Source of the DNA: Candidatus Nanoarchaeia archaeon
GTDB taxonomy: Archaea; Nanobdellota; Nanobdellia; Woesearchaeales; JANQNC01
NCBI GenBank assembly: GCA_028279745.1
Contig: JANQNC010000001.1
Location: 914,154 to 978,153 of the forward strand
Direction of reading: 5' to 3'
DNA length: 64,000 nucleotides
Positions 27,933 through 51,691 of this stretch are shown here, piece after piece. The notes under the pieces were generated by a model. That model was not told the origin of the DNA. It worked only from the letters and a program-made list of their open reading frames with translations, and ran no database searches. A program made the position numbers and the translations under genes. Numbering within the stretch: the stretch's first letter is position 1; every line of letters starts with the position of its first letter.

Positions 27933-27935
27933 AAA

Positions 27936-28748: not shown

Positions 28749-28749
28749 A

Positions 28750-30078: not shown

Positions 30079-30090
30079 GAGGTTAAAAAA

Positions 30091-31386: not shown

Positions 31387-31388
31387 AA

Positions 31389-32213
31389 ATGGACTACACA
31401 CCAATATACTCAGGAAATCCAAAAGAATTCAGTTGGGTGGGATTTGGATCTGGAAGCGGGACAAATTTAGCAGCATGTGCTAAAGTTATCAAACCAGTGA
31501 TGGTTTTTTCTGATAAACCATCTGCGAAACTTTTCAAACTAGAAGAGTTAGCAGGTGTTGAACAAAAAACAATAGATGGTTTTGGGTATTGTGGGGGTTG
31601 GCAAGCAGCAAAAGGCAATCCAGTAAAAGAAGAGCAATACAAAGAAAGAAGCGTAAAATATAACGAGCTGATTCTAGAGACCTTAAAAGAGTTTGAAGAG
31701 GCACAAGGCAAACCGATAGACCTGATAGTTCTTGGCGGATATATGAGACTAGTTGGTGATTGTATACTTGAAGCATACAAAGACAAAATAATAAACGTGC
31801 ACCCGGCAGATCTTTCTATCCTGAACGAGAAGAACGAAAGAGTGTTTATCGGTGGAGATGCAGTTTATGACGCGATAAAAGCAGGACAAGAACAAACAAG
31901 ATCGTCAGTAATAATGGTAGATTCAGGAATGGATCATGGAGAAATAATTACAATGGGTCCTGAGGTAAGAACGTGGGAAGAATACACTAACGGAACAAAA
32001 GCAGAAAAAGAAGAATGCTTGAGAGAATATGCAGATGGACACCAAAGCTTACAAAAAATAAGGAGTGATCATCCAGCATTAACAACGGCAGTGGACCTTA
32101 TTGCACAGAACAAATTAGCATTAGGCAAAGAAAAAACATTCCATAACGAATGGAGAACCGTATACTTCGGTGGGAGACCGCTTGATTATAAAGGACTTGA
32201 GTTAGGGAGGTAA
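31389..32213 (+). CDS. purN: Phosphoribosylglycinamide formyltransferase
   Basis: formyl_trans_N motifs INVHPADLSILNE; N-terminal ~60 aa extension. Confidence 0.8.
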   Translation: MDYTPIYSGNPKEFSWVGFGSGSGTNLAACAKVIKPVMVFSDKPSAKLFKLEELAGVEQKTIDGFGYCGGWQAAKGNPVKEEQYKERSVKYNELILETLKEFEEAQGKPIDLIVLGGYMRLVGDCILEAYKDKIINVHPADLSILNEKNERVFIGGDAVYDAIKAGQEQTRSSVIMVDSGMDHGEIITMGPEVRTWEEYTNGTKAEKEECLREYADGHQSLQKIRSDHPALTTAVDLIAQNKLALGKEKTFHNEWRTVYFGGRPLDYKGLELGR

Positions 32214-32219
32214 TTGAAA

Positions 32220-36751: not shown

Positions 36752-36788
36752 AGCTAAGATTGTTAATTATTGATATTTAAAGGTTTAG

Positions 36789-38100: not shown

Positions 38101-38571
38101 ATGCGATGTCCATACTGCTCAAAAACTGATACTAAAGTAGTAGACAAAAGAGATTCTGAAGAAGAGCCAGTAATTAGACGAAGGAGGGAATGCCTTAAAT
38201 GTGGTAAAAGATTTACAACATATGAAAGAGTAGATATGGTAGATCTAACAGTGATAAAGAAAGACGGAAAGAAAGAACAGTTTGACAGAGAAAAGTTGAA
38301 AAGAGGGATGTTAAGAGCAGCAGAAAAAAGGATAAGCATGGAGCAGATAGACAAAGCGATAGATGAGATCGAATCAACATTAAGAAAAAAGAATACAACA
38401 GAAATCAAAGGGCCGCAGATAGGAGATCTAGTTATGAAAAAGTTAAAGAAACTAGACAATATAGCTTACATAAGATTTGCGTCAGTCTACAGAGAGTTTG
38501 AAGACTTGACAGACTTACAAGGCGAGATAAGAGAAATTATCAAGAAAGAAAAGAGTAAGAATTCTAAATAG
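38101..38571 (+). CDS. nrdR: Transcriptional repressor NrdR (zinc ribbon + ATP-cone)
   Basis: MRCPYCS…RRRECLKCGKRFTTYE zinc ribbon followed by ATP-cone; 156 aa. Confidence 0.85.
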   Translation: MRCPYCSKTDTKVVDKRDSEEEPVIRRRRECLKCGKRFTTYERVDMVDLTVIKKDGKKEQFDREKLKRGMLRAAEKRISMEQIDKAIDEIESTLRKKNTTEIKGPQIGDLVMKKLKKLDNIAYIRFASVYREFEDLTDLQGEIREIIKKEKSKNSK

Positions 38572-38917
38572 TCATTGCAGCGCCAAAAGCAAATTGTATT
38601 GCAAGAATAACAAAAATCAATATAGCTGCAATAATAAATTGCAAGAACCAACTAAGGATAGCTTTCCACCAGGTAAGATCAAAAACACCTTTGTACAAGA
38701 ATATAACAAAAACAAATGAGATCAGTCCACCCCAAACAAAAAATATTTGGTTAACTATTGAAATAAAAACTGCAGATAAAATATTAACAACAATAACTTC
38801 TTTGAACTCAGTCTTACCTTTCAAAGCTTTAACTGCTAAAAAAAGTGGAATGCTAGAGATAGCAAAAACTATCACCAATAACAATATTTTGATCAATGCA
38901 CTTACTATCCAAACCAT
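38564..38917 (-). CDS. Hypothetical polytopic membrane protein
   Basis: ORF, 3-4 hydrophobic helices. Confidence 0.35.
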   Translation of the reverse strand: MVWIVSALIKILLLVIVFAISSIPLFLAVKALKGKTEFKEVIVVNILSAVFISIVNQIFFVWGGLISFVFVIFLYKGVFDLTWWKAILSWFLQFIIAAILIFVILAIQFAFGAAMTI

Positions 38918-38966: not shown

Positions 38967-38980
38967 AACCTTTAAAAATG
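38967..38980 (+). promoter_or_regulatory. Archaeal BRE/TATA-like element AACCTTTAAAAAT upstream of first pilin-like gene
   Basis: TATA-like box ~45 nt upstream of ATG 39016, GAGGTGGG RBS before start; near-identical AACCTTTAAATAC at 44621-44634. Confidence 0.45.
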
Positions 38981-39015
38981 CTTGAACAGAATATACTATA
39001 TAAAAGAGGTGGGAC

Positions 39016-39420
39016 ATGAGAAAAGGCCAAGTTGCCATGGAATACGTGATGATAGTTGGGTTTGCAACCCTGATAGCAATACCATTATTCCTAATATTCA
39101 ACTTTTATACATTAGAAACAAGAGACGAAGTTATATTGAGCCAAGCAGACAGCATAGCAACAAAAATAGTTGACTCTGCCGAATCAGTTTATTACATTGG
39201 AGAACCATCCAAAATAACTCTTAAGATCTATATGCCAGTGGGTGTAGAAAATATTACAATACAAGATGGATATGTTGTTTTAAGAGCAAGCACGAAAGGA
39301 TTATCGACAGACATAGTAAAATCATCTGACGTAAATATCACAGGAACGTTAAACATAGTGCCTGGAATGAAGAACATAAACATAGAAGCGAGAGGTGACT
39401 ATGTTTGGGTAGAAGGTTAA
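39016..39420 (+). CDS. Class III signal-peptide (type IV pilin-like) protein
   Basis: N-terminus MRKGQVAMEYVMIVGFATLIAIPLFL = archaeal prepilin-type signal (KGQ + hydrophobic helix). Confidence 0.65.
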   Translation: MRKGQVAMEYVMIVGFATLIAIPLFLIFNFYTLETRDEVILSQADSIATKIVDSAESVYYIGEPSKITLKIYMPVGVENITIQDGYVVLRASTKGLSTDIVKSSDVNITGTLNIVPGMKNINIEARGDYVWVEG

Positions 39421-39797
39421 AAGCACAGACATCAACAGAGTTTGTTCTGTTCATAAGCGTAGTATTCTTAGTGACTTTGATAGTATTATCATCTATTCTA
39501 TATTACTTAAGAGAGTACACTTCAGAAAAAGAGTATAACGTACTAAAAAAACAGGCAGAAGTAATAAAAAACGAATTATACCTTGCATCAACAGTAGAAA
39601 ATGGGTATTTGAGAATGTTCCAGATAAAATCTCCACAAGACGACATAGTCTTTAACTTTACACAAGAAAACAATTCATTAATACTGACTTCAAGACGTCA
39701 GCAATTCATAGCAGATCTGGGCGTTAAGATAAACGGAACATTAGTGATGGGAAATAACACAATAAGAAACATAGAAGGTGCAGTCCATGTCAACTAA
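39405..39797 (+). CDS. Class III signal-peptide pilin-like protein
   Basis: MGRRLKAQTSTEFVLFISVVFLVTLIVL; overlaps upstream gene. Confidence 0.5.
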   Translation: MGRRLKAQTSTEFVLFISVVFLVTLIVLSSILYYLREYTSEKEYNVLKKQAEVIKNELYLASTVENGYLRMFQIKSPQDDIVFNFTQENNSLILTSRRQQFIADLGVKINGTLVMGNNTIRNIEGAVHVN

Positions 39798-40875
39798 AAA
39801 CAAGAAAGCACAAGTATGGACAACAGACTTTTCACTTAGCCTTTTGGTGTTTGTGATAGCAATAGTACTTTTCGGCAGAGCAATAACAAATCTTTCATCG
39901 TCAACAGGAGAAAACATAGACGACTTAGTGAGTGAAGGAAGATTAGTGACAGATTCTTTAACATCGGAAGGGTACCCTTCAAACTGGACCGTTGCAAACG
40001 TAAAACGAGTTGGGTTGATGGGGCAAGGCAAATTGTTGGAGAATGACAAATTACAGAACATGCTCAATATGACTTACCAAGATGCGCGAGAGATATTAGG
40101 GACAAAGTATGATTATTTCTTATTCTTCATAGACGAAAAAGGAGAACTAGTAAACGTATCAGAAAACTTGGGTGTGGGACATCCTAATGTGTACGCGATA
40201 GGATCAAGAAAAGACACAAATACCATAGCATACTACCAAAAAGAAAACTTGCTTCTAGATGAGATGCAAGAGCTTAATGCAACAGTATTTACAGGAGGAT
40301 CAAAATCACAGTTCATAGGCAACATAACAAACTATGAGGTTCTAGTGATGGAAGATCCACACTTTTCAGACATAGAGATAGACGTGGTTGAAGAGTATGT
40401 TTTAGAGGGGGGCAAACTAATAATCACAGAACACATAACAGACACAAGCGGAACATACTTTGGAGTGAATTTTGTACATAGGAGCATGAACGCAGGAAAC
40501 GAGCTGGCAACAGTGATAAGCGCAGATTCAAATATGCCTTTCTCAATAGGTGAAACATACACGCCAAGAGAGTATCCTTATATAGATGCTGCACATATAG
40601 ACAAGATAGCAACATACCCTGATGGAAAAGTGGCGATGGCAACCTTCGGATATGGAAGCGGGAAAGTTTATTATCTAAGCGATTCAGATAATCCAGACTA
40701 TTTAGGAGATTTTGAAGAAGAGATAAAAACAGCAACAACAAATTTTTTACTTGAAGAAAGACCAGAAAATTATGTAGAATTAAACCAGATACAATATAAC
40801 AAACTAGTCACGATAACAAGACTTATAGTCATGAATGGAAAAGTAACAAGGATGGTGCTATACATATGGGACTAA
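39778..40875 (+). CDS. Large class III signal-peptide pilin-like protein
   Basis: KKAQVWTTDFSLSLLVFVIAIVLF N-terminus; 365 aa; overlaps neighbours. Confidence 0.5.
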   Translation: MQSMSTKNKKAQVWTTDFSLSLLVFVIAIVLFGRAITNLSSSTGENIDDLVSEGRLVTDSLTSEGYPSNWTVANVKRVGLMGQGKLLENDKLQNMLNMTYQDAREILGTKYDYFLFFIDEKGELVNVSENLGVGHPNVYAIGSRKDTNTIAYYQKENLLLDEMQELNATVFTGGSKSQFIGNITNYEVLVMEDPHFSDIEIDVVEEYVLEGGKLIITEHITDTSGTYFGVNFVHRSMNAGNELATVISADSNMPFSIGETYTPREYPYIDAAHIDKIATYPDGKVAMATFGYGSGKVYYLSDSDNPDYLGDFEEEIKTATTNFLLEERPENYVELNQIQYNKLVTITRLIVMNGKVTRMVLYIWD

Positions 40876-43589
40876 AGAAAGGATACTATTTCAGCGTTGA
40901 TGCCATACTTGGATTAAGTATAGTGTTGGTTGGGATACTTATCATGGGATCTTTTTATTCAAACCAGCAGGAGACAACCCACTTAACATATGTTGCAGAC
41001 GATCTAATAGAGGTTTTATCTACTGTACAGATAAGTGATGTGAACAACACATATGTACAAGAACTTATCGCAACAGGCCATATAACAAACACAAATAGTT
41101 CTTTACTGGAACAAATAACAAAACTTTGGGTGGAAGGAAAACATACAAGAGCAAGCGAGATGGCTCGAAACATAACCGAACAGATAATTCCTGACAACAT
41201 CATGTTTAGCATACTTGTGGATGGAGGTGTAGTCTATGAGAGAACAAACACAAGCTCAAACGTACTTGTACTGAGTAAAGAGCTAGTCTCAGGAATGGAA
41301 ACAGGAAAAGCACCAAAAGGATCAACCGCAAGAATGTATCTTACAGGAATAAAATCAAAAGAGACAAACGCTTACGTATACTTTGGCGGATTTACAGGAC
41401 AAGGAAACGTGACAATGTCCATAACAGACTTACCAAGTGATGCAAACATAACTGAGATGGAAATAGAAGGTGACTTTGGAGCAAGTTTCTGGCTGGAAAT
41501 AAATGAACAGTTATGTGGAAGTTTTGTACCTGTTGCTGGAGAGCTAGCGGCAGATGCGTGGGACATAACAAGTTGTAACAATCTAGTTGATGTGGGCAGC
41601 AATGTACAAAATAATTTTTCAATATCTTTTACGGGAGAGATGGAGGAGAAATATATAGGTGGTGGTTTCATAAGGATGAAATACACAACCGAAACACTAT
41701 ACGAAAATAAGACCTTAGGAAATCAAAAAATTTATCTTCCTGGGATAGACGGAATCATAAACTTATTCTCGGGGATAAACATCCCCGGAACATTAAACCA
41801 GATGAACTTACACTTACATTATTTCTCAAACCACTCAGACTTTTCAGTACCTTTATTCTTCTCATTTGGAGACGTGCAAGTCTATAACGACACAAACAGC
41901 ACAACACCACAAACAATAGACATAGATGATGCACAACTTTCATCTTTGCTTGACTATGGTGAATTAAGCAACACCACAGTACCGATAAGGTTTGGGTTTT
42001 CAAATGTAAGTTACTTGACAGAGTTTGTAGGATTAGCAGATGTAATGTTAGTAAGTGACTTATCAGGAAGCATGGAATTCTGTATGAATAGAAATGACGG
42101 CTATGAAACAGACTGGGTATGGACAAACTTTAACTTCCCAGATCAATCAGGAGCGGCAGCGTGCGGAAGAAAATGGGAGAGGGACGGTAATTGTCCAAGC
42201 AATGCCCCAAGAAGGATAGACGTAGCAAAAAATGCAAGCAAAGCATTTGTAGAAGCATTATTTAACACAACAGGAAACAGGATAGGCACAGCAGAATATT
42301 CTGCATTTTACTCATCAGGAACTTATGTACAACAACCCTGCGGAACAAATATACAAGAATTCCCTGGAGGGATAGTAACACAAGAAAGTCTAACAACAGA
42401 TCAAATAGTCTTAGAAAACCACATAGATGACATGGCAGTATGGTATGGAACTTGCATATGCTGTGGAGTAAATAGAGGTATGCAAGTATTACAAGCAAAC
42501 AGCAACGCATCAAGAATAGGATCCATAGTTGTAATGACTGATGGAGATGCAAACCAAGAATGCCCTGAACAAGGTAACACAGGAGATCTGGATGGAGATG
42601 GAAGTTCAGATACAGCAAGAGATGATGCAGTGCAAGCAGCACTTGATGCCTGTGCTTTGAACTATTCAGTATACACAGTTGGATTTGGTCCAGGAGCATA
42701 CAACGGGACAATGATCGCGATGGCATGTAATGGAGGAAGTTACTATTCTGCATCAGACATGGACACACTTATAGATGCATACACTGCAATAGCAAACCAG
42801 ATAAGAGTTGCAACAATGCAAGCGCAAACGATAGTTGTGTCTGGAAACAATATAACATCATCACAAATATATCCCGATTCTTACATAGAAATAAACTACA
42901 CTCCAACATATAATCCAGTAGAGTTTGGAGAGATATCTGTAACTTTACAATCAGACCAATTTCCAAACTGTTCAGGAAGCTGGTATATCTCTGATGATCT
43001 TACTATAGTAGACTCAAGCGCCACTTCATATTCAGCACAGCACTGGACAGACCTTGTAAGAGTAAACAACCAAACAAGCTTTAATCTGAGCTATTTCGGA
43101 ACAGACTATACTTCGTTAGGAGATCCTTATCTAGCATATGTCAAGCCAGAAAGTTTCATAACAGGGATTAATAATATCACAATAGTGTCTGCAGATGAGA
43201 TAGCAAACGATACTTTCTGTTCAACAAACAACTCATTGATATATACTGCAATGGCAAAATCTTCAGTCTCATACGGAACAGTATTGGAAAGAGAGGAAGG
43301 TTGTAATTGGTTTGTAGAGTTTGAAGATGGAGGCAATGCAACATTAGCAGTGCCGCAAGGATATGCAGGAAATAAAACTTGCAGTTACACCGGATCTTCG
43401 ATAAGTTATGATACAGATGATTCATATGATGATGCGATGTACAGATTGTTAGAAGGGCTGGATTTTGATGATGATGGAAGAACATACTTTAATTTTGATC
43501 AAAGCGATATAGGGTTTAATGTAATTACGATTTCAGAAGTACCTTACATGTGGGGGCCGACAGGGGTCGAGGTGAGAACATGGCAATGA
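40866..43589 (+). CDS. Pilus-associated giant protein with von Willebrand factor A domain (candidate tip adhesin)
   Basis: Prepilin-like N-terminus GLKKGYYFSVDAILGLSIVLVGILI; MIDAS DVMLVSDLSGSME and downstream VVMTDGDANQ vWA motifs; 907 aa. Confidence 0.65.
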   Translation: MGLKKGYYFSVDAILGLSIVLVGILIMGSFYSNQQETTHLTYVADDLIEVLSTVQISDVNNTYVQELIATGHITNTNSSLLEQITKLWVEGKHTRASEMARNITEQIIPDNIMFSILVDGGVVYERTNTSSNVLVLSKELVSGMETGKAPKGSTARMYLTGIKSKETNAYVYFGGFTGQGNVTMSITDLPSDANITEMEIEGDFGASFWLEINEQLCGSFVPVAGELAADAWDITSCNNLVDVGSNVQNNFSISFTGEMEEKYIGGGFIRMKYTTETLYENKTLGNQKIYLPGIDGIINLFSGINIPGTLNQMNLHLHYFSNHSDFSVPLFFSFGDVQVYNDTNSTTPQTIDIDDAQLSSLLDYGELSNTTVPIRFGFSNVSYLTEFVGLADVMLVSDLSGSMEFCMNRNDGYETDWVWTNFNFPDQSGAAACGRKWERDGNCPSNAPRRIDVAKNASKAFVEALFNTTGNRIGTAEYSAFYSSGTYVQQPCGTNIQEFPGGIVTQESLTTDQIVLENHIDDMAVWYGTCICCGVNRGMQVLQANSNASRIGSIVVMTDGDANQECPEQGNTGDLDGDGSSDTARDDAVQAALDACALNYSVYTVGFGPGAYNGTMIAMACNGGSYYSASDMDTLIDAYTAIANQIRVATMQAQTIVVSGNNITSSQIYPDSYIEINYTPTYNPVEFGEISVTLQSDQFPNCSGSWYISDDLTIVDSSATSYSAQHWTDLVRVNNQTSFNLSYFGTDYTSLGDPYLAYVKPESFITGINNITIVSADEIANDTFCSTNNSLIYTAMAKSSVSYGTVLEREEGCNWFVEFEDGGNATLAVPQGYAGNKTCSYTGSSISYDTDDSYDDAMYRLLEGLDFDDDGRTYFNFDQSDIGFNVITISEVPYMWGPTGVEVRTWQ

Positions 43590-44518
43590 TGAATAGGAAA
43601 GCGGTGTTCTATACAGTAGTTGGAGTTATAATGGTTTTTACACTTCTACTTTTATTCATTGTTTATGAAAAAGAACCCTCTATAGATAAGACATCAGTAA
43701 TATTGACAAGAGTAAAAACAACAAATAACTTTTTAGAAAACATAAATAGAGATCTTGAAAGAGCATTGCAGATATCAAGCATGAGGGCATCACTATCTTT
43801 GTTAGAACATATAACAACAACTGGAGATTTTGTAGACGATTCAAAAGCAAGGTATGAAGAAGCGATAGTTGATGGAACTGTAAATGGAAACCAGATGATT
43901 TTGATGGAGAATACAACATTCGTAGATTGGATTAATAAAATAGAATCCGAAGCAAATAGAATTGGGGTGATGACAAACATAACTCTGATTGTTGTAAGTG
44001 TATACCAAGAAGATCCTTGGCATGTAAAGAGCACAGCAAACATAACTATGCGAGTAAGAGATTCAAAAGACACTGCAGAATGGACACAGACAAAACAGAT
44101 GCAGACAAAAATACCTATTGTTGGGTTAGAGGATCCTCTTTACTTAGTCAATACTTATGGGAGAGTGGCGAACATAATTAATGTAACCCCTTATGAAGGA
44201 GATTATGTTCAAGGAAGCAATGTTGCAAACTTAACAATACATCTTAACAGTTCACTTTATACAAACTCAACGTTAGCACCATCTTTCTTAATGAGATTAG
44301 AAAACGATTTAGGAAGTTCACCTTTTGGGATAGAGAGCATGGTAAACTTAAACAAGTTAGAAGAACAAGGGATCACAACTAAAAACAGAAGTAACATAGA
44401 CTATATCTACTTTGGATTTGGTTCCACAACAAACTATAAAGTGACTGGATTACCGACGTGGTTCCATATAGATGATGGCCATGTCAATAGATATCAAGTT
44501 CAGAATCTAACATACTAA
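43580..44518 (+). CDS. Class III signal-peptide pilin-like protein
   Basis: MAMMNRKAVFYTVVGVIMVFTLLLLFIV; ATG 43580 after GGTGA; ATGA overlap with upstream stop. Confidence 0.45.
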   Translation: MAMMNRKAVFYTVVGVIMVFTLLLLFIVYEKEPSIDKTSVILTRVKTTNNFLENINRDLERALQISSMRASLSLLEHITTTGDFVDDSKARYEEAIVDGTVNGNQMILMENTTFVDWINKIESEANRIGVMTNITLIVVSVYQEDPWHVKSTANITMRVRDSKDTAEWTQTKQMQTKIPIVGLEDPLYLVNTYGRVANIINVTPYEGDYVQGSNVANLTIHLNSSLYTNSTLAPSFLMRLENDLGSSPFGIESMVNLNKLEEQGITTKNRSNIDYIYFGFGSTTNYKVTGLPTWFHIDDGHVNRYQVQNLTY

Positions 44519-44624
44519 CTTTAATTTTTTTGTAAATTGATTTTTTCTATTAAGAAAAAATAATTTTTTTATGAAAAAATAGTTTTTTAATTAGTGACGG
44601 AAGAAACACTAATTTTTCGAAACC

Positions 44625-44632
44625 TTTAAATA
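44625..44632 (+). promoter_or_regulatory. TATA-like box (within AACCTTTAAATAC) upstream of Lys/Ala-repeat gene
   Basis: ~60 nt upstream of ATG 44693; GAGGTGA RBS at 44681-44687. Confidence 0.45.
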
Positions 44633-44692
44633 CTCAAAACTCCAAAATTAGAGTTGTGTTAAAACTAACACAAAAAACATGAGGTGATATTC

Positions 44693-44932
44693 ATGGCAGC
44701 AAAGAAGAAAAAAAAAGCAGCTAAGAAAAAGAAAAAAGTTGTAAAAAAGAAAAAGGCTAAAAAGAAAGCTAAGAAAAAAGCTAAAAAGAAAAAAGCAGTG
44801 AAGAAGAAAGCTAAAAAGAAAGCAAAGAAGAAAAAGGCTAAAAAGAAAAAAGCTAAGAAAAAGAAAGCTAAGAAAAAAGCTAAAAAGAAAAAGGCTAAAA
44901 AGAAAAAAGCTAAGAAAAAGAAAAAAAGATAG
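44693..44932 (+). CDS. Highly basic Lys/Ala-repeat mini-protein (79 aa, >65% Lys), histone-H1/Hc1-tail-like
   Basis: MAAKKKKKAAKKKKKVVKKKKAKKKAKKK…; ATG with SD, upstream TATA, downstream hairpin terminator; opposite-strand frame would encode poly-Phe, implausible. Confidence 0.45.
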   Translation: MAAKKKKKAAKKKKKVVKKKKAKKKAKKKAKKKKAVKKKAKKKAKKKKAKKKKAKKKKAKKKAKKKKAKKKKAKKKKKR

Positions 44933-44948
44933 TTAATTAATTTATAGT

Positions 44949-44980
44949 TTGCCTGTAAAACAGGCAAGCTTCCTTTTTTC
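44949..44980 (+). terminator. Hairpin plus T-run terminator-like element
   Basis: TTGCCTG-taaaa-CAGGCAA followed by gcttccTTTTTTc. Confidence 0.5.
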
Positions 44981-45049
44981 TAAAAATTTTACATACACTT
45001 ATTCTAAACAAAAAGGTTTTTAAACCCAAATCCCATAATTAGCATTAAA

Positions 45050-45718
45050 ATGATCGAAACAGGTGTAGATAGACTTATAAGCTTAGTAAACGAGAAAAAA
45101 AAGATTTCTTTTAAGGATGCAGCAAAGGAATTGGCAGTAGATATATCTACAGTAAAAGAATGGTCAAGCATAATGGGTGACGAGGACAACGTCATCATAG
45201 AGTATAAGTTCACAACACCTTTCTTAGTCATGAAAGGAGAAACAAAGAAGTCAAAAGCGCCAAAAAATCAGAAGATAGACAAGCTTCACAAAGAAAAAGA
45301 AGAACAGATAAAAAAAGTTGAAGAAAGTATAGGCTCATTAAACGAACATCAAACAGGCATAGAACAAGCAAAAGAAAGGATAAGCGGGATAAAAGATGAT
45401 CTTGCAAAGCATTCAAGCGAGCTTCAAAAACAAATTTCAGGACTTGTAGGTGGAAAAGAAGAAGTTAATCCTGAAAAACTAAAAAAGTTCATTATGCAAA
45501 GGATAAACGCGATAAACAAAAAACTGATAGAAGAAGAACAAAAATATGAAGACTTTGCAAACAAAGTAAAAAAAGAGACAGACACACTTAACGATTCATT
45601 TAAGAATATGGCAACACATCTAAAAAAAACTGCAGACTGGATAAACTACTTCAAAGAACATGATGCTGAACAAGAGAAAAGAATAAAAGAACTTGAAAAA
45701 GGTGCAAAGAAAAAATGA
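45050..45718 (+). CDS. Coiled-coil protein with N-terminal wHTH-like segment, translationally coupled to pilus ATPase
   Basis: Lys/Glu-rich heptad-like region; stop overlaps ATPase start (ATGA). Confidence 0.5.
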   Translation: MIETGVDRLISLVNEKKKISFKDAAKELAVDISTVKEWSSIMGDEDNVIIEYKFTTPFLVMKGETKKSKAPKNQKIDKLHKEKEEQIKKVEESIGSLNEHQTGIEQAKERISGIKDDLAKHSSELQKQISGLVGGKEEVNPEKLKKFIMQRINAINKKLIEEEQKYEDFANKVKKETDTLNDSFKNMATHLKKTADWINYFKEHDAEQEKRIKELEKGAKKK

Positions 45719-47148
45719 AGCTTGTAGATGAATATAACTTCACATCAGATAAGGTGCCTGTTAAAGTACAGATAGTTCTGCAAGATGGAGAATATGTGCC
45801 ATTGTATGTTGCATCAGTGATGGACATATCCAAAAGTGCAGAAAGAGTTCTTGAAAGAGTAAGAGAAGAAACAATCAACGAAGTAAAAATAGACATGGCC
45901 GATTTAGGGGATGTCAAAAAAAGAGATATAATAAGGCAAAAGTTTGAAGAAAAAACAAAAGAGTTGATCACAAAATACTTTCCAGACGCATCAAAAGATC
46001 TAGTTGAATTCTTTACATCATTCTTGATACAAAAGAGTATGGGGTTAGGAGACATAGATCTTCTAAAAAATGACGATCTTCTGGAAGAGATAACTGTAAA
46101 TGGATCTGCAGAACCGGTTTGGGTATACCACAGAAAACACGGGTGGTTAAAGACAAATATTTTACTGCCATCAGAACAACACATCAACCACATATCAACA
46201 ACAATAGGAAGAGACATAGGAAGACAGATAAATGTTTTAGAACCATTAATGGACGCAAGCTTAGACACGGGGGACAGGGTTAACGCAACATTGATGCCCA
46301 TCTCAAACAGAGGAAACACAATAACAATAAGGAAATTCTCAAAAACTCCCTGGACAATAGCAAACATAATCAAAGCAGGAACAATATCATCACAAGGAGC
46401 AGCACTAGTCTGGTTAGGGATGCAGTATGAACTATCAGCACTAATAGCAGGAGGAACGGGGTCAGGAAAGACAAGTATGATGAATGCATTATCAAACTTT
46501 TTCCCTCCAAACCAAAGGATACTAAGTATAGAAGATACAAGAGAGCTAACTTTGCCGGACATTCTACACTGGGTGCCAATGATGACCAGGTTACCCAATG
46601 CAGAAGGAAAAGGGGAGGTAACTATGCTTGATCTATTAGTGAATTCATTGAGGATGAGACCCGACAGGATACTGGTGGGAGAGATAAGAAGACAGAAAGA
46701 AGCAGAAGTACTTTTTGAAGCTATCCACACAGGACACTCAGTATACGCAACAATACACGCAAACGACGCAAGAGAAACAATATCAAGACTTACAAACCCA
46801 CCAATAGAAGTTCCAAAGATGATGCTTCCAGCGCTAAGCATGATAGTGGTACAGCACAGAAACAGGAGAACTGGTGGAAGAAGAACTTTCCAAATAGCAG
46901 AAGTAACAAAAGAAGGAGATCCGAATGTATTACAACAACTTGATCTAAAAACTGATAAATTATATCAGAAAAACAAATCACAGTCCATACTAGACACTTT
47001 AACAATGCACATAGGAATAACCGAGCAAGAGATGCTCCAAGACATGAAAGAAAAAGAAGGCATACTGAAGTGGTTAGTCAAAGAAAACATAATGGACGTA
47101 CATAAAATAGGAAGGATAATAGCAGACTATTATCAGAAACATAGTTAA
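45715..47148 (+). CDS. Type IV pilus/archaellum-family assembly ATPase (FlaI/TadA/GspE-like, VirB11 superfamily)
   Basis: Walker A GGTGSGKTS, Asp box, Walker B ILVGEIR, His box; 477 aa. Confidence 0.9.
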   Translation: MKLVDEYNFTSDKVPVKVQIVLQDGEYVPLYVASVMDISKSAERVLERVREETINEVKIDMADLGDVKKRDIIRQKFEEKTKELITKYFPDASKDLVEFFTSFLIQKSMGLGDIDLLKNDDLLEEITVNGSAEPVWVYHRKHGWLKTNILLPSEQHINHISTTIGRDIGRQINVLEPLMDASLDTGDRVNATLMPISNRGNTITIRKFSKTPWTIANIIKAGTISSQGAALVWLGMQYELSALIAGGTGSGKTSMMNALSNFFPPNQRILSIEDTRELTLPDILHWVPMMTRLPNAEGKGEVTMLDLLVNSLRMRPDRILVGEIRRQKEAEVLFEAIHTGHSVYATIHANDARETISRLTNPPIEVPKMMLPALSMIVVQHRNRRTGGRRTFQIAEVTKEGDPNVLQQLDLKTDKLYQKNKSQSILDTLTMHIGITEQEMLQDMKEKEGILKWLVKENIMDVHKIGRIIADYYQKHS

Positions 47149-47188
47149 GTTTCAATCATTAAGTCAAAAAAAGGGGTGAAGGTAAAGG

Positions 47189-48007
47189 ATGTTTATAGAT
47201 GATATTTCTGAAAGAATTTCAAAGTCTTTACCTGAGCTAAAAACAGTTCTGAAACAAGCAGGACTTAAAGGGGAACCGCAACTGTTTGTAAAAAAAACAT
47301 TAGTGTCAGCAATCTATATGTCAGTTGGAGTAAACATACTGTTCTTATTTGCATTCCTTAAATTGGGAATTTCACCATTATTCCTTCTGATATCATTATT
47401 GATAATAACCCCAATAATGTTTGCATACTTGATAAAGACACCAGTAGTATACATACAAAAGAGAAGAAAAGAAATCAATAAAGAGATAATATTTGCAGGC
47501 AGAGCATTATTGATAGAACTAGACTCAGGAATATCTTTATTTAACTCACTAGTAAGCATATCAAGAGGTTATGGGTTAGTTGGTGAGGAGTTCAAAAAAA
47601 TAGTAACACAAATCAAGATGGGAACTCACATAGAAGATGCAATAGATAAAGTAATAGAAACCACCCCTTCTGATAATCTAAGAAGATTATTATGGCAAAT
47701 ACTTAACTCACTAAAAACCGGATCAAACGTAGCAAGATCAATAGAAGAAGTACTAGAACAAATAGCAAAAGAACAGATCATAGAAGTAGAAGCATATGGA
47801 AAAAAACTGAATCCTCTGGCGATGTTTTACATGATGATGGCAGTAATAGTTCCATCCTTAGGAATAACAATGTTAGTAGTATTAGCAAGCCTGATCTCAT
47901 TTAACATGACCTTGCCGATGTTGATCGGGTTAGCAGTATTTGTAGGATTATTCCAAGCGATGTTTATCGTGATGATAAAATCAATGAGGCCAGCAATAGA
48001 GCTATAA
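47189..48007 (+). CDS. TadC/FlaJ-like polytopic membrane protein (T2SS-F domain) 1
   Basis: Size/topology and position immediately after secretion ATPase; AGGGGTGAAGG RBS. Confidence 0.7.
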   Translation: MFIDDISERISKSLPELKTVLKQAGLKGEPQLFVKKTLVSAIYMSVGVNILFLFAFLKLGISPLFLLISLLIITPIMFAYLIKTPVVYIQKRRKEINKEIIFAGRALLIELDSGISLFNSLVSISRGYGLVGEEFKKIVTQIKMGTHIEDAIDKVIETTPSDNLRRLLWQILNSLKTGSNVARSIEEVLEQIAKEQIIEVEAYGKKLNPLAMFYMMMAVIVPSLGITMLVVLASLISFNMTLPMLIGLAVFVGLFQAMFIVMIKSMRPAIEL

Positions 48008-48008
48008 G

Positions 48009-49019
48009 ATGATAGAAGAAATCGGAAAGTTTGTAACACCAAAAAAACTTGAAAAATCATTAAAACAGAAATTAATAGTCTCAGGAATAAAGATGAAACC
48101 GGAAGAGGTGACGGGTTCTGCATTTTCTCTTAGTATTTTCGTTTCATTGATAATCTTCTTCTTACAAATATTTCCGTTGAGAGATCAGTATGCGGCTAAT
48201 GGCGCAATGCTGGTCATATTATCATTAGTGTTCTTTTTGATTTTATTATTAATCACCTTAGTTGTTTTGGGCGTTGTAATATTTACGTTCTTTAACTTGA
48301 GAGGGTATTCAAGAGCAAAACAGATAGAAGAAGTATTGCCTGACTTTTTGCAATTGACAGCTGCAAACATACGATCAGGAATGATGATAGACAAAGCGAT
48401 GTGGTTAGCAGTAAGACCAAGATTTGGGATACTTGCAGAAGGGATAGAGATAGTCGCAAAAAAAACATTATCAGGACATGAAATATCAGATGCGCTAAAC
48501 GAATTCGTAGCAAAATATGACAGCTTATTATTACAGAGATCCATGCATTTAATGATAGAAGGGATGGAGTCAGGAGGAAAGATGGCAGAACTTCTGAATA
48601 AGATCTCCTGGAACGTAAGAGAAACACAACTTATGAGAAAAGAGATGGCAGCAAGCGTAATGACATATGTAATATTCATATCATTTACAGTACTATTGGC
48701 AGCACCGTTCCTTTATGGGCTATCATACACATTGTTAACAGTAATAGGACAGATCATACCTTCACTACCCGAACAATCAGGAACATCTGCAATGATGATA
48801 AGCTTCTCAGAAATAAGCATATCACCTGATGAATTTAGCATATTTGTAATGGTTTCATTAGCGATCACTTCATTATTTTCAGCAATAATAGTATCAACAA
48901 TACAAAAAGGGTCGGCAAAAGCAGGAATAAAACTCATACCTGCTTTCATAGTCGTGTCGGTAGTTTTATTCATAATATTTAGAACGGTGTTATCCTCTGT
49001 GTTCTCTGGATTCTTTTGA
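48009..49019 (+). CDS. TadC/FlaJ-like polytopic membrane protein (T2SS-F domain) 2
   Basis: Second T2SS-F-like membrane protein; start 1 nt after upstream stop. Confidence 0.7.
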   Translation: MIEEIGKFVTPKKLEKSLKQKLIVSGIKMKPEEVTGSAFSLSIFVSLIIFFLQIFPLRDQYAANGAMLVILSLVFFLILLLITLVVLGVVIFTFFNLRGYSRAKQIEEVLPDFLQLTAANIRSGMMIDKAMWLAVRPRFGILAEGIEIVAKKTLSGHEISDALNEFVAKYDSLLLQRSMHLMIEGMESGGKMAELLNKISWNVRETQLMRKEMAASVMTYVIFISFTVLLAAPFLYGLSYTLLTVIGQIIPSLPEQSGTSAMMISFSEISISPDEFSIFVMVSLAITSLFSAIIVSTIQKGSAKAGIKLIPAFIVVSVVLFIIFRTVLSSVFSGFF

Positions 49020-49048
49020 CCACTAACGGTATATAAAAAAACGCTACA

Positions 49049-49056
49049 TTTAAATA
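49049..49056 (+). promoter_or_regulatory. TATA-like box (TTTAAATA) upstream of major pilin gene
   Basis: Several TATA-like motifs 49028-49084; GGAGGTG RBS before ATG 49131. Confidence 0.35.
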
Positions 49057-49130
49057 GGAGAAGTTCCAGGATTGGTATATACCCTTAATTTACAATAAAG
49101 AGGTTAAATTAATAGGAGGTGTTAAGGTAA

Positions 49131-49562
49131 ATGAAAAAAGGACAAGCAGCAATGGAGTTCTTAATGACCTATGGATGGGCAATTCTAGTTGTTCTTATAG
49201 CAATTGGAGCTTTAGCTTATTTCGGTGTACTAAGCCCAGATAAACTACTGCCAAACCAGTGTAGGTTAGCACAAGGATTGTATTGTAAGTCACACAAAGC
49301 TGATACCGCCGGAGTTAGTGTTTTAATAGTGAACTCACTAGGAAAAGACATAACTGTAACAGGTATCAACATAACAGACCAGTCAGGATGTGATGCGTCA
49401 TTCAGTACAGCATTAGCTAATGACCAGCAAGCACAGTTCGACGTGGCGTGTACAATAACTGCAGGAACAAAGATCAAATCAGATATTGCAGTGACTTACG
49501 ACGAAACAGGTGGACTTTCAGGGCTTAAGAATTCTGGAAATTTCATCGCACAAGTAGAATAA
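49131..49562 (+). CDS. Class III signal-peptide pilin (candidate major pilin)
   Basis: MKKGQAAMEFLMTYGWAILVVLIAIGALAYF; own promoter and T-rich terminator. Confidence 0.75.
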   Translation: MKKGQAAMEFLMTYGWAILVVLIAIGALAYFGVLSPDKLLPNQCRLAQGLYCKSHKADTAGVSVLIVNSLGKDITVTGINITDQSGCDASFSTALANDQQAQFDVACTITAGTKIKSDIAVTYDETGGLSGLKNSGNFIAQVE

Positions 49563-49676
49563 ATTTTTTTATTTTTTCTACCTTTTTCTTTTATTTTTTT
49601 TAGAAACTTAGTGTTAGCTGTATAGACAACATTTATATATCCTTAAATCAAGAAATAGGAAAAAAGGGATGATATT

Positions 49677-50119: not shown

Positions 50120-50590
50120 TTACTTTTTCTTAGCTGCTGGCTTTGGAGCTGGTTTAGCGTCTTTAGTAGCAGGCTTAGTTGGTGTATTAACCTGAACTTT
50201 AGGAAGCTGTAATGGTGGTGGCAAGTTAATATCATCGCTAAGTACAAGAGCTTTAACATTGCACTTGTTCAATATGTGGTTCAAAAGAACTGCCATTAAA
50301 TTCTTTTCAAGCTTCTTTGTCTTTTTCCAACCGTCAATTATTTCTTTAGCCTTGGATGCTTCTTCTAAATTTAGAACATCACCTTCAAGCTTTATTTCGC
50401 CAACGCCTGGTTCGTAACTGCAAATAAATTCAAATCCAAACTTGATCCCTTCTTGCTTAACCTTTCCTAAAGAAAGATTTTGTCCATCCACACTCACTAT
50501 CTTAACATTATTATTAATGTTAATCCTGCCAGTTGCAGGTTTTTTTCTCTCAACGGAGATCTTGTTAAAATTAAATCCTACTATTGCCAT
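50120..50590 (-). CDS. Hypothetical protein with Lys/Pro/Ala-rich C-terminal tail
   Basis: C-terminus TPTKPATKDAKPAPKPAAKKK. Confidence 0.45.
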   Translation of the reverse strand: MAIVGFNFNKISVERKKPATGRININNNVKIVSVDGQNLSLGKVKQEGIKFGFEFICSYEPGVGEIKLEGDVLNLEEASKAKEIIDGWKKTKKLEKNLMAVLLNHILNKCNVKALVLSDDINLPPPLQLPKVQVNTPTKPATKDAKPAPKPAAKKK

Positions 50591-50698
50591 ATATTATCAC
50601 CATCCCAAAAGGGTTTGAAGCTATATTTAAAGGTTTCGGGGCAGTTATAAGAAATGTTTATAAAAAGAGAATACAAAGAATGAACTAATCATGTTTTA

Positions 50699-51691
50699 GT
50701 GGAGGATGATAAGATGAAAAAAATAATCTTAATGGTGCTGGTTGCAATTATGAGCATTAGTTCTGTTTTTGCAGCAATAGCTGGGTGCGATCCTTTTCTT
50801 TTAGGTTCTTGTACTACAAGATGTAATGATATGATTTCGCCTACAGGTACAGCGGTAGGGTGGAATTTGAATGTTCAAGGTAATAACTTTGTTTGTCAGA
50901 GCACAGGTGCTACTTATACGGGTGGGCTTTTTGATATTGATTCAGATATAGCTGATGGGGGATGGTGTAACTCGTTGTCTGTTCCTAGGGTGAATGAGGG
51001 TCCGTGTATGCATGTTTACTATTCTGAAACTGAAAGTAATGTTTATTGCGCGGGCTATGAAAGAGCGGGTGAGCCAGTTACGTTGGCGAATGTAGCGACA
51101 CATTGTAGGGTGTCAGGTGTTCCTGATTACTCTGCTTTTGATTTTAGCGATCCTTTCTTTGCAGGAACTGGTGCACCTGGTGGAATAACATTAATAAGCG
51201 ACTGTGATCCTGCTCTTCCAGGATCTTGTACTGCAAGATGTAATGATATAATGTCTCCTACAGGCACAGCAAATATTTGGAGTTTGAACCTTCAATCTGG
51301 TTTTGTTTGTCAGAGCACAGGTGCTACTTATACAGGCGGGCCTTTCGATATTGATTCAGACATAGGTGATAGTAGATGGTGTAACTCATTATCTGTTCCA
51401 AGGGTGAATGAGGGTCCATGTATGCATGCATACTACTCCGAAACTGAGAGTAACGTTTATTGCGCAAGCTATAAAAGAGCGGGTGAACCAGTTACGTTGG
51501 CAAATGCAGCAACACACTGTAGGGTATCGGGTGTTGAGGACTATTCAGCTTTTGATTTTAGCGATCCTTTCTTCGCAGGACATTTAGTAGACCAAGTACA
51601 GGGTGTACCTGAGATTAGTGTAGCATCTTCAATAATTGCATTGATAGCAGTTCTTGCAGTAGTCGGAGTTATAGCGGTTAGAAAGCGCTAG
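50699..51691 (+). CDS. Secreted, C-terminally membrane-anchored protein made of two ~140-aa Cys-rich tandem repeats
   Basis: Signal MKKIILMVLVAIMSISSVFAA; repeat 1 CDPFLLGSC…DFSDPFFAG and repeat 2 CDPALPGSC…DFSDPFFAG ~80% identical; C-terminal TM SIIALIAVLAVVGVIAVRKR. Confidence 0.55.
   Translation: MEDDKMKKIILMVLVAIMSISSVFAAIAGCDPFLLGSCTTRCNDMISPTGTAVGWNLNVQGNNFVCQSTGATYTGGLFDIDSDIADGGWCNSLSVPRVNEGPCMHVYYSETESNVYCAGYERAGEPVTLANVATHCRVSGVPDYSAFDFSDPFFAGTGAPGGITLISDCDPALPGSCTARCNDIMSPTGTANIWSLNLQSGFVCQSTGATYTGGPFDIDSDIGDSRWCNSLSVPRVNEGPCMHAYYSETESNVYCASYKRAGEPVTLANAATHCRVSGVEDYSAFDFSDPFFAGHLVDQVQGVPEISVASSIIALIAVLAVVGVIAVRKR

Follow-up and report, generated by a model that had tools for sequence, protein, structure and literature searches.

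A probable non-archaellar type IV filament locus with a vWA-bearing pilin-like protein in a Woesearchaeota-like DPANN archaeon

Organization of the locus

Eleven genes, g1 to g11, follow one another on the + strand between positions 39016 and 49562 of the 64-kb window, the term used here for the whole stretch of DNA analysed. An open reading frame was found at each of the positions where an earlier note, made from the sequence alone, had placed these genes. Their content is that of a near-complete filament-building machine for the cell surface. When all six frames of the window were scanned with a regular expression and for hydrophobicity, class-III-like N-termini were detected, among the real genes, in g1-g5 and g11 only, and these motifs are kept in orthologues from 80 related loci of Woesearchaeota and Nanoarchaeota. 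Both results agree with the earlier description of five overlapping class III genes and a separately transcribed small pilin. All six sequences have the features that characterize type IV filament (T4P/TFF) subunits: the leader is short and basic, position -1 of the predicted cleavage site is a small residue, and a hydrophobic helix follows, in which an acidic residue near +5 is usual. The Pfam model Class_IIIsignal matched g1 alone, below its cutoff (18.7 vs 23.7 bits, E 0.0017), and gave no match for g3, g4 and g5.

The 80 related loci are all from MAGs. Most of their labels are Woesearchaeota, Nanoarchaeota or Nanoarchaeia, in line with the DPANN origin proposed earlier; many, labelled 'uncultured Methanosarcinales', look mislabelled. 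Comparison of the synteny across DPANN genomes reveals that in these 80 loci the minor-pilin set stays linked to the ATPase/platform module, in two permuted arrangements.

The pilus genes are probably organized in three transcription units, g1-g5, g7-g10 and g11, with the unrelated small g6 inserted between them. TATA-like boxes are located upstream of g1, g6, g7 and g11. The box of g1, CTTTAAAAA (38970-38978, + strand), is promoter-like and lies 38-46 nt 5' of the start codon, and a GAGGTG motif is found 5' of the g1 ATG. The motif CTTTAAAWA occurs in four copies in 64 kb, where 7.6 are expected by chance, and all four stand 23-70 nt 5' of a start codon and share its orientation. Archaeal transcription is terminated by oligo-T tracts, and T-rich tracts are present 3' of g5, g6 and g11. 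The tract after g5 (44519-44570, + strand), with runs of 6-7 T, is the likely end of the g1-g5 unit, and the tract after g11 (49563-49605, + strand; TAAATTTTTTTATTTTTTCTACCTTTTTCTTTTATTTTTTTT) is a likely terminator. Within the first unit the genes overlap by 16 nt (g1/g2), 11 nt (g2/g3), 10 nt (g3/g4) and 10 nt (g4/g5), while g7 and g8 overlap by 4 nt (ATGA) and g9 and g10 are adjacent.

The small pilin-like proteins and g3

The products of g1 (39016-39420, + strand; 134 residues, MRKG/QVAMEY..., the slash marking the predicted cleavage site from which positions are counted) and g2 (39405-39797, + strand; 130 residues, ..RLKA/QTSTEF...) are minor pilin-like proteins. Gln+1 is found in 20 of 20 orthologues of g1 and Glu+5 in 19 of 20. 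The orthologues of g2 carry the motif KAQ.A.EF, with Gln+1 in 9 of 11 and Glu+5 also in 9 of 11.

The pilin-like protein g3 (39787-40875, + strand; ..KKA/QVWTTDF...) has 362 residues from the ATG, or 365 if the alternative, listed GTG at 39778 is used. Its 18 orthologues all have Gln+1 and an acidic residue, Asp or Glu, at +6. A module of about 190 residues is inserted ahead of the last strands of g3, and only weak Pfam hints were obtained for it. Orthologues of 165-188 residues share with g3 the N-terminus and the C-terminal motif ..TRLVV....KMV.YLWD, and only two close homologues of 360 residues were found.

The pilin g11 (49131-49562, + strand) has 143 residues, begins with MKKG/QAAMEFLMTYGWAILVV... 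and has four Cys residues in its globular part. Gln+1 and Glu+5 are present in 79 of 79 homologous copies, in which the N-terminal 35 or so residues are nearly invariant, and 11 of 29 related loci have tandem copies (two or three). A strong GGAGGTG motif and TATA-like boxes upstream, together with the T-rich tract downstream, bear out the earlier claim that this gene has its own TATA element and terminator. The strong ribosome-binding site, the terminator and the tandem paralogues are hallmarks of an abundant major pilin, and g11 is the probable major pilin of the system.

The minor pilin-like protein g5 (43580-44518, + strand; ..NRKA/VFYTVV...) has 312 residues from the ATG and 322 from an alternative GTG at 43550. 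None of 32 orthologues has Asp or Glu at positions +1 to +10, and in GspK the conserved acidic residue is missing as well. Because its N-terminal helix lacks the neutralizing acidic residue, g5 is the likely cap subunit by analogy with GspK and PilX. It belongs to a family of at least 1,384 clusters, with 1,870 representatives, 1,384 of them at E<=1e-10. No relative of the family was found in Pfam or the PDB; the TadF model was weakly matched by one of 40 members. The AF2 model of g5 consists of a helix and three strands in the N-terminal half and is of low confidence in the C-terminal half. A fold search with this model, poor in its C-terminal half, returned no pilin match.

The 907-residue protein g4

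The modular pilin-like protein g4 (40866-43589, + strand; 907 residues, MGLKKG/Y) consists of a class III N-terminus with a long helix (residues 5-53), beta-rich modules (about 113-378), a vWA domain with a MIDAS (about 390-650) and a C-terminal beta domain (about 660-890), which is followed by the final pilin strand, ..WGPTGVEVRTWQ. The vWA domain proposed earlier is backed by homologues, profile search and structure model. It is not detected by Pfam in g4 itself; homologues of g4 carry PF00092/PF13519. The MIDAS residues D398, S400, S402, T529 and D559 are conserved and make up the complete DxSxS...T...D site of a vWA fold. A profile search matches Mfa5 and Streptococcus sanguinis PilB. The AF2 model (pLDDT 83) has the vWA fold and an N-terminal helix of 49 residues, a length typical of pilins, followed by a small alpha/beta module.

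The orthologues of g4 have a conserved N-terminus, KKG/.FF..D, with an acidic residue within +1 to +10 in 24 of 24. Family members of 166-212 residues correspond to the pilin-sized module alone. The short, medium and long forms share the terminus ..GPxxxEVxxW. Since all size classes end in the same terminal strand, the modules are internal insertions and not C-terminal additions: the vWA domain and its flanking modules sit inside the pilin module, before its last strand. In scaffolds of the g3/g4 type three states were observed: no insert (about 170 residues in total), a non-vWA insert of about 430 residues, and a vWA domain, either alone or accompanied by other domains (up to 1,178 residues).

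The sequence of g4 has 28 N-x-S/T sequons, compared with 11.8+-3.0 expected, and the cytoplasmic proteins g7 and g8 have no such enrichment. The Cys residues of the whole locus are confined to g4 and g11. Judged from sequence, the sequon excess and the Cys distribution are an extracellular signature. Since the vWA modules are inserted before the last pilin strand, they would be displayed on the filament. In structure, this displayed module is closest to protein-binding adhesins of pilus tips. By this analogy g4 is a candidate metal-dependent adhesin, plausibly located at the tip and serving host attachment.

The assembly ATPase, the platform and the neighboring genes

The product of g8 (45715-47148, + strand; 477 residues) is an ATPase of the GspE/FlaI superfamily, as the earlier note had claimed of an assembly ATPase here. 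The T2SSE match (E 5.8e-39) is above the Pfam cutoff, and the translation contains Walker A (GGTGSGKTS), Walker B (ILVGEIR) and a His box. The best PDB match is Archaeoglobus fulgidus GspE2 (2oap, 239 bits, residues 16-474, full length), followed by FlaI with 194 bits and CpaF with 177 bits. In NCBIfam the top match is the FlaI model NF058587, with 257 bits against a cutoff of 550; the values are 188 against 373 for the TadA model and 146 against 1000 for the BasE (bindosome) model.

HMM searches in Pfam and NCBIfam also found one T2SSF domain each in the platform proteins g9 (47189-48007, + strand; 272 residues, E 2.2e-15) and g10 (48009-49019, + strand; 336 residues, E 1.8e-11), both above the Pfam cutoff. 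Protein g9 aligns to positions 31-252 of 484 in UpsF, and g10 to positions 197-463 of 465 in ArlJ/FlaJ, with a score of 23.5 against a cutoff of 400. The two are the equivalents of the N-half and the C-half of a FlaJ/TadC-type platform, and the split platform recognized earlier is thereby confirmed. They are found in 76 (g9) and 74 (g10) of the 80 related loci. The g9 score of 31.7 bits, against a UpsF cutoff of 400 and for the N-half only, agrees with the view that the locus is not of the Aap/Ups type.

The cytoplasmic protein g7 (45050-45718, + strand; 222 residues) had been described as a coiled-coil protein. The coiled coil is present; it is preceded by an N-terminal winged helix-turn-helix (wHTH, residues about 1-60) that had been missed. 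The g7 profile matches an Lrp/AsnC-type wHTH (1i1g, 2.7e-4) and the Pfam models HTH_DeoR, HTH_24 and HVO_A0114. In 66 of the 80 loci g7 lies immediately 5' of the ATPase gene, and in one locus, L023, it is fused to the ATPase in-frame. To judge from the gene overlap, g7 is translationally coupled to g8. With its wHTH domain, g7 could simply be a transcription factor.

The reading frame g6 (44693-44932, + strand; 79 residues, Ala/Lys-rich) has a probable start at ATG 44693, which lies 7 nt 3' of a GAGGTG motif and is also picked by the Logan gene caller. A promoter-like box is present at 44624-44632, and a hairpin plus T-run at about 44950-44975. The DNA of g6 is an imperfect 15-nt tandem repeat, and its coding status is not certain because the low complexity keeps two of the three frames open. 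The basic mini-protein of the earlier note thus exists as a reading frame, but not as a conserved part of the system, having no counterpart in the 80 related loci; g6 is probably an insert that does not belong to the pilus system.

Peptidase and archaellum components

Pfam and NCBIfam scans and the gene list of the 64-kb window gave no peptidase A24, FlaH/KaiC, FlaF/G or archaellin; the scan covered nearly all large reading frames other than a 1093-residue one at 23750-27031. The earlier observation that a peptidase, FlaH and FlaG/F are missing from the locus therefore holds among the window reading frames scanned. An A24 prepilin peptidase was likewise not found among multi-TM reading frames in 1.12 Mb around the 80 related loci, and their conserved synteny leaves no room for FlaH/ArlH (KaiC-like), FlaF/G or archaellin. 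Since no linked peptidase was found, leader processing would depend on an unlinked gene.

Interpretation

The best explanation is that a Woesearchaeota-like DPANN archaeon encodes in this locus a type IV filament (T4P/TFF) system other than an archaellum. We estimate its probability at about 0.6, a joint value that includes the following mechanism. The basic leaders, [KR][KR][GA], of the six pilin-like proteins would be removed by a class III signal peptidase whose gene lies at another place in the genome. The ATPase g8, as a hexamer, would dock on the platform of two half-size proteins, g9 and g10, and polymerize the abundant small pilin g11 into a filament. The five co-translated minor pilins g1-g5 may form a priming or tip complex, which g5 would cap by analogy with GspK/PilX. 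In this complex g4, and here g3 as well, would each be a pilin that has taken up large modules ahead of the last beta-strand of its fold. The vWA module of g4 may then be presented by the filament and act as an adhesin that depends on metal, with another cell or a surface as its plausible target. Protein g7 may be a physical partner of the ATPase, in the role of adaptor, regulator or both. Bacterial systems serve as the model for placing g4 at the tip and for seeing g5 as the cap: in S. sanguinis a tip-exposed vWA modular pilin works as an adhesin, and GspK caps pseudopili (PMC8179133).

A more tentative extension, possible but not favored, is that the pilin scaffold of g3 and g4 is a cassette-display device. 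DPANN lineages, Woesearchaeota among them, might swap binding modules in one fixed loop ahead of the last beta-strand, so that tip composition sets which host or surface is grabbed, and the vWA/MIDAS form found here would be a host-recognition adhesin. Combined with the g5 family and a g7-type partner of the ATPase, such a device would define a distinct DPANN-wide pilus subtype.

It is unlikely that g3, g4 and g5, some or all of them, are instead type II membrane-anchored surface proteins with an uncleaved signal anchor, which would serve as a stator or anchor (FlaF/FlaG- or TadG-like) at the pilus base or as independent co-expressed adhesins. The missing Pfam class III match of g3-g5, the failure of g5 to match pilins structurally and the lack of a linked peptidase are consistent with this idea. 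In addition, Makarova et al. assigned the minor pilins of archaea, on grounds of analogy, to the vicinity of the pilus base and noted that TadG, a vWA protein of bacteria, may be a pilus anchor. However, the combination of [KR][KR][GA], a hydrophobic helix and a position-specific acid (Asp+6 in g3 and g4), kept in distant orthologues, exceeds what a generic anchor needs. The g4 family includes pilin-only members of 166-212 residues, a long N-terminal helix like that of pilins is seen in the g4 model, and g3-g5 are translationally coupled to the clearly pilin-like g1 and g2.

Slightly less probable is a short pseudopilus, a bindosome-like assembly or a DNA-uptake pilus, in which the minor pilins, together with the vWA protein, would capture substrate or import DNA or nutrients instead of attaching the cell. 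Type IV filament machineries are interchangeable in function at the sequence level. Class-III-signal binding proteins are said in the literature to functionalize archaeal TFF machines, and DPANN pili have been proposed to import DNA or nutrients (PMC9563170). A DNA-binding-type wHTH protein, g7, coupled to the ATPase and once fused to it, would suit DNA uptake. The BasE model, which points to a bindosome, does score g8, but far under its cutoff. Neither the locus nor its conserved neighborhood contains genes for substrate-binding proteins, ComEC or DNA processing, the displayed module of g4 is closest to protein-binding tip adhesins, and g11 has the hallmarks of a major pilin, all of which argue against this reading.

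An archaellum, the rotary swimming organelle, is effectively refuted, as the earlier note had held for a canonical one: FlaI is the top NCBIfam model for g8 and g10 weakly matches ArlJ/FlaJ, but the first score is under half its cutoff and the second lower still against its own, g8 is closer to A. fulgidus GspE2 than to FlaI, the platform is split over two genes, and archaellin, FlaH/KaiC-like and FlaF/G genes are absent from the locus, the scanned window reading frames and the synteny of the 80 loci.

For the type IV filament reading, it is important to note that the machine class and its occurrence in DPANN archaea are already catalogued, and the locus overturns nothing. The version found here is widespread and lacks earlier characterization. 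The current view of DPANN archaea is that they live in attachment to other cells, and few of the contact molecules are known. Pili joining DPANN cells to hosts have been reported (PMC9938205; PMC9563170), and pilins are usually unannotated in DPANN genomes (PMC9563170). From this locus and the 80 related ones a concrete list of the conserved parts of a Woesearchaeal pilus can be drawn up, with g4 as a named candidate adhesin that has a predicted metal-binding site. The g5 family is a large unannotated minor-pilin family from which a profile for annotation could be built. If cassette display were true, the make-up of the pilus tip would set the host cell or surface for each lineage. A cluster for de novo purine biosynthesis also lies within the window, so the premise of strict host dependence is not secure.

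Comparison with known systems

As the earlier note states, the locus is neither a canonical archaellum nor of the Aap/Ups type. It is less unprecedented than that note implied: platforms of two genes accompanied by many minor pilins have been described for Epd/'System 1', for bacterial Tad pili and, at the level of a census, for DPANN archaea. For the latter, 'System 1' (in some genomes) and 4A pilus systems with two platforms are reported (preprint 10.64898/2026.04.22.720090).

The Epd pilus of Methanococcus maripaludis is the archaeal TFF 'clade 1' (Makarova 2016), or 'System 1' (Sivabalasarma & Albers 2026 preprint). It shares with the locus an ATPase with two separate platform genes (here g9 and g10), at least five class III minor pilins with large adhesin-like proteins (here g1-g5, and g4), and a major pilin whose transcription is separate from that of the minor ones. 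However, Epd loci have a dedicated peptidase EppA, FleN/MinD and DUF2341/PilY-like adhesins, while no EppA or FleN/MinD was found in the window or in the related loci. The Epd major pilin has about 70 residues and no globular domain (arCOG06620-type), in contrast to the 143 residues and Cys-containing globular part of g11. The adhesin here is a pilin with a vWA domain instead of DUF2341, and a wHTH-coiled-coil gene precedes the ATPase.

The bacterial Tad/Flp pilus resembles the locus in its two one-domain platform proteins (TadB and TadC), its pseudopilins (TadE/TadF), a pilus-associated vWA protein (TadG) and an ATPase, TadA/CpaF, related to g8 (CpaF 177 bits, TadA model 188 bits). It differs in the secretin RcpA, TadZ/CpaE and TadV, which the locus lacks; the pilins here are not of the Flp type, and the TadA score is below cutoff. 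The likeness to A. fulgidus GspE2 is limited to the ATPase. The GspI-J-K and PilV-W-X-FimU(+PilY1) sets resemble the locus as operons of several minor pilins, one of them large with a domain inserted in the pilin beta-sheet, and in having one subunit, GspK or here g5, without the conserved acidic residue. No sequence or fold similarity to these sets was detectable, and the analogy is architectural only.

S. sanguinis PilB (PDB 7b7p) is a bimodular pilin that, like g4, has a vWA module. The bacterial protein has about 460 residues, and its vWA module is joined to the C-terminal end of the pilin by a short linker. The archaeal g4 has 907 residues and extra beta modules, and its insert precedes the last pilin strand, a topology closer to GspK or ComZ. 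Within the literature searched, the 'modular pilin' with vWA known from bacteria finds a first archaeal counterpart in g4, where the topology differs, being that of an insertion.

Organization of the locus

The locus spans positions 38970-49605 of the window and consists of eleven ORFs, all on the + strand and exactly as the earlier note described them. The first five, g1-g5 (39016-44518), encode pilin-like proteins and do overlap one another, by 10-16 nt. They are followed by a T-rich tract and a 530-bp spacer containing the lysine-rich ORF g6. The genes g7 (45050-45718) and g8 (the ATPase, 45715-47148) are joined through an ATGA overlap; the platform genes g9 (47189-48007) and g10 (48009-49019) come next, and g11 (49131-49562) is last. 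The latter, said to be a separately promoted pilin gene, is preceded by AT-rich boxes of its own and a GGAGGTG ribosome-binding site, and a long T-rich stretch follows it.

The motif CTTTAAAWA occurs in four copies in 64 kb, against 7.6 expected, at 36774-36782 and 50624-50632 on the - strand and at 38970-38978 and 44624-44632 on the + strand. Each copy is correctly oriented with respect to a gene (AlaRS, g1, g6 or the one at 50120-50590) and precedes its start codon by 23-70 nt. The motif is probably a core promoter element (TATA/BRE-type) in this organism.

Two proteins without a Pfam family are encoded next to the locus. The 117-aa product of 38564-38917 on the - strand, divergent from g1, has four predicted transmembrane segments; it contains a single Asp and is therefore not an A24-type peptidase. 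The gene at 50699-51691, 1.1 kb downstream of the locus, encodes a 330-aa cysteine-rich secreted protein with two internal repeats of ~145 aa and a C-terminal transmembrane anchor ending in RKR.

The remainder of the window is ordinary archaeal housekeeping (GatD/GatE, CDC48, PCNA, RNase J, SMC, RNase HII, a purine cluster and glycosyltransferases). The purine cluster (22889-33386) is a near-contiguous set of de novo biosynthesis genes, with Pfam support for the GMP synthase glutaminase, a PurQ-like GATase_5, AICARFT/IMPCHase, GARS, a formyltransferase and an AIRS-like gene; the 1093-aa ORF at 23750-27031 is, judging from its position, probably FGAM synthase. Such a cluster is unusual in a supposedly host-dependent DPANN genome. 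The premise of host dependence is therefore weakened, and caution is needed against assuming that it is strict.

Pilin-like proteins

All six frames of the window were scanned for short basic leaders that are followed by a small residue and a hydrophobic helix free of charged residues. Among real genes, g1-g5 and g11 alone match this pattern, and their orthologues retain N-terminal motifs specific to each family, which bears out the prepilin-like N-termini noticed earlier. In g11, [KR][GA] is followed by QAAMEFLMTYGWAILVV, with Q+1 and E+5 in 79/79 orthologues. The corresponding motifs are K[GA] before Q.SMEY in g1 (E+5 in 19/20 orthologues), KA before Q.A.EF in g2 (Q+1 and E+5 in 9/11) and K[AS] before Q.W..D in g3 (D/E+6 in 18/18). 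In g4, KK[GA] precedes.FF..D, and an acidic residue is found within +1..+10 in 24/24 orthologues. The g5 protein has KK[AG] before.FF and an acidic residue in 0/32 orthologues. Of 29 related loci with good coverage, 11 contain g11 in two or three tandem copies; because the g11 product is small and nearly invariant at the N-terminus, and because of its own transcription and these tandem copies, g11 looks like the major pilin.

A minor pilin without an acidic residue is a hallmark of the bacterial cap subunit GspK/PilX. The position of GspK is at the tip (PMC8179133). With the g5 profile, 1,870 representatives of 50%-identity clusters are recovered, of which 1,384 score E<=1e-10 and 644 E<=1e-30; a 40-sequence profile finds no Pfam family and no PDB relative. 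The structural model of g5, made from an alignment of only 8 sequences, has a pLDDT of 62; its N-terminal half, a long helix with three strands, is confident, the C-terminal half is unreliable, and a Foldseek search with this model returned nothing at E<=0.001. The g5 proteins form a large family that lacks annotation and is linked to this type of pilus.

The earlier note called the 907-aa g4 product a vWA protein. A direct Pfam/NCBIfam scan gives no vWA match, just a 15-bit hCaCC fragment. The domain is nevertheless established by four lines of evidence. Many of the 87 homologues found (labelled Woesearchaeota, Pacearchaeota, Aenigmatarchaeota, Micrarchaeota or 'DPANN group') carry PF00092/PF13519. 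In a 32-sequence alignment, the MIDAS residues D398, S400, S402 and T529 are >=90% conserved and D559 is invariant. The g4 profile matches Mfa5, a pilus tip protein of Porphyromonas, in its vWA domain (5.4e-17) and also the Streptococcus sanguinis modular pilin PilB (3.7e-9). Finally, the AF2 model (pLDDT 83) has an N-terminal helix of 49 residues, then a small alpha/beta module, beta-rich modules, a vWA domain of Rossmann-like fold at ~390-650 and a beta domain at the C-terminus.

The g4 family falls into size classes of 166-212, 614-626 and 897-1,178 aa. Common to all are the N-terminal ~150 residues and a terminal strand ..(W/F/Y)GPxxxEVxxW, so the additional modules are inserted ahead of the final strand of the pilin part. 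In S. sanguinis PilB, by contrast, the vWA domain is a C-terminal graft on the pilin module. The insertion architecture of the g4 family appears to be a new point. The g3 protein of this window repeats the pattern, having an insert of ~190 aa as compared with orthologues of 165-188 aa that end in the same ..TRLVV....KMV.YLWD motif. This insert is rare, with only two close homologues (67-68% identity) in a database of 5.8 billion clusters, and has no PDB match; weak Pfam hints (Glyco_hydro_42M and ABC_transp_aux, E 0.01-0.02) suggest a flavodoxin-like/GATase1-like fold.

N-glycosylation sequons are strongly enriched in g4 (28, against 11.8+-3.0 expected) and are not enriched in the cytoplasmic g7 and g8. 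The g4 protein also carries 16 of the 20 cysteines of the locus. Both features fit an extracellular location of g4.

Assembly ATPase, platform and the g7 protein

The g8 product is a secretion ATPase, as proposed (T2SSE 5.8e-39), with the Walker A, Walker B and His box motifs all present. Its best solved relative, matched over the full length, is GspE2 of A. fulgidus (239 bits), ahead of FlaI (194 bits) and CpaF (177 bits). The possibility that the locus encodes an archaellum is rejected, since g8 scores only 257 bits on the curated FlaI model, for which the cutoff is 550, and is thus not an archaellum motor. One T2SSF domain is found in each of g9 and g10. The first matches the N-half of UpsF (31-252 of 484) and the second the C-half of ArlJ (197-463 of 465), the pattern expected of a platform protein that would be split across two genes, as had been suggested.

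The g7 protein had been described as a coiled-coil protein. The coiled coil is present, and an N-terminal domain had been overlooked: a conserved winged helix-turn-helix (wHTH) of ~60 residues, which matches the Lrp/AsnC-type wHTH of 1i1g (2.7e-4) and, in up to 21/36 members, the Pfam models HTH_DeoR, HTH_24 and HVO_A0114. The length of the helical tail ranges between ~85 and ~770 residues. Long orthologues (590-830 aa; L043, L053, L031, L017 and L047) contain 6-9 copies of an unnamed helical repeat of ~60 residues with the signature ..Y..I...Y..LP.GF..EK.EL...I..LY., to which no Pfam family matches.

The g7 gene lies directly before the ATPase gene in 66/80 related loci. In one of them (L023, at about 8339-10126) a g7-type wHTH is fused in frame to the pilus ATPase in a single 595-aa ORF. 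This Rosetta-stone-type hint suggests that g7 and g8 interact. A purely regulatory role, to which a wHTH could point, is possible; the protein is read instead as a putative physical partner of g8, an adaptor and possibly an autoregulator.

Related loci

Eighty related loci were fetched, all from MAGs, with ATPases 53-63% identical to g8. Most are labelled Woesearchaeota, Nanoarchaeota or Nanoarchaeia. About 25/80 are titled 'uncultured Methanosarcinales archaeon'; their loci are likewise of the Woesearchaeota type, and their identity level matches that of the Woesearchaeota-labelled MAGs, which suggests systematic taxonomic mislabelling of this batch.

The order g1-g2-g3-g4-g5-g7-g8-g9-g10-g11 recurs in many loci (e.g. 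L003-L006, L010, L012, L018, L023 and L059). In a second arrangement the minor pilins are placed downstream of g11 (L016, L026, L034 and L035). Several genomes have 2-3 paralogous loci, for example L007 and L017 in PCYE01 and L065, L068 and L074 in SKIA01. In the 29 loci flanked on each side by >=7 kb, minor-pilin homologues were searched by tblastn. They are upstream in 17/29, only downstream in 3/29 and not detected at this sensitivity in 9/29; g7 is found in 27/29. The linkage survives rearrangement, a sign that the set of minor pilins functions together with the ATPase and platform genes.

The lysine-rich ORF g6 (44693-44932, 79 aa) separates the two pilus operons. None of the 80 loci has a counterpart of it, and its candidacy as a conserved pilus component is rejected. 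The basic mini-protein of the earlier note is thus present as an ORF and is not a conserved member of the system. Its start is most likely the ATG at 44693, which an independent gene caller also chose on a 14.7-kb Logan contig ending inside g6. A promoter-like CTTTAAATA box and a GAGGTG motif accompany the ORF, and a hairpin with a T-run serves as its probable terminator. It is Ala/Lys-rich (AKKK-repeat) and lies within an imperfect 15-nt repeat whose composition leaves two frames open. This low-complexity candidate ORF is probably an insert unrelated to the pilus, and its product may be a basic protein of the histone-H1 type. L056 encodes a similar AKKK-rich protein, which has an additional N-terminal domain, at a different position (2984-3409).

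Comparison with known systems

The absence of a prepilin peptidase from the locus, pointed out earlier, extends further: no A24 enzyme was found in the 64-kb window, which is part of a 1.30-Mb source contig, nor in the 1.12 Mb that surround the related loci. The search among multi-TM ORFs of these loci gave only an SPP/presenilin-type A22 protease, which is the sole GxGD protease seen nearby, Lgt and others. TadV-type peptidases have been reported in other DPANN pilus clusters (PMC9563170), and System 1 (Epd-type, clade 1) was detected in DPANN genomes by a 2026 census whose models demanded a peptidase (10.64898/2026.04.22.720090).

Two-platform pilus systems in DPANN were already catalogued before this analysis. 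The clade 1 (Epd-type) systems of Makarova et al. 2016 comprise an ATPase, two TadC genes, >=5 minor pilins and large adhesins, and the preprint of Sivabalasarma & Albers 2026 lists for DPANN/Nanoarchaeota both System 1 loci and 4A loci, the latter with two platform genes and a PilY-like adhesin (10.64898/2026.04.22.720090). A vWA-bearing pilin is mentioned in neither work; the only vWA proteins in Makarova et al. 2016 are ArnB-type regulators and bacterial TadG. Raynaud et al. surveyed modular pilins in bacteria alone (PMC8179133), and a full-text literature search combining DPANN, pilin and von Willebrand found no papers.

The overall interpretation of the earlier note is supported, with refinements: g7 has a wHTH domain, the added modules of g3 and g4 are insertions, g6 is probably an insert without relation to the pilus, and two-platform systems had been catalogued before. 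Characterized Epd loci have a linked peptidase and MinD, while the present locus has neither; it differs from them also in its larger, globular major pilin, in its vWA-insertion pilins and in the wHTH-coiled-coil partner of its ATPase. On comparison with the published systems, the locus is read as a type IV filament system that would work like an Epd/Tad-type adhesive pilus, and its most likely function would be host attachment via a vWA tip adhesin.
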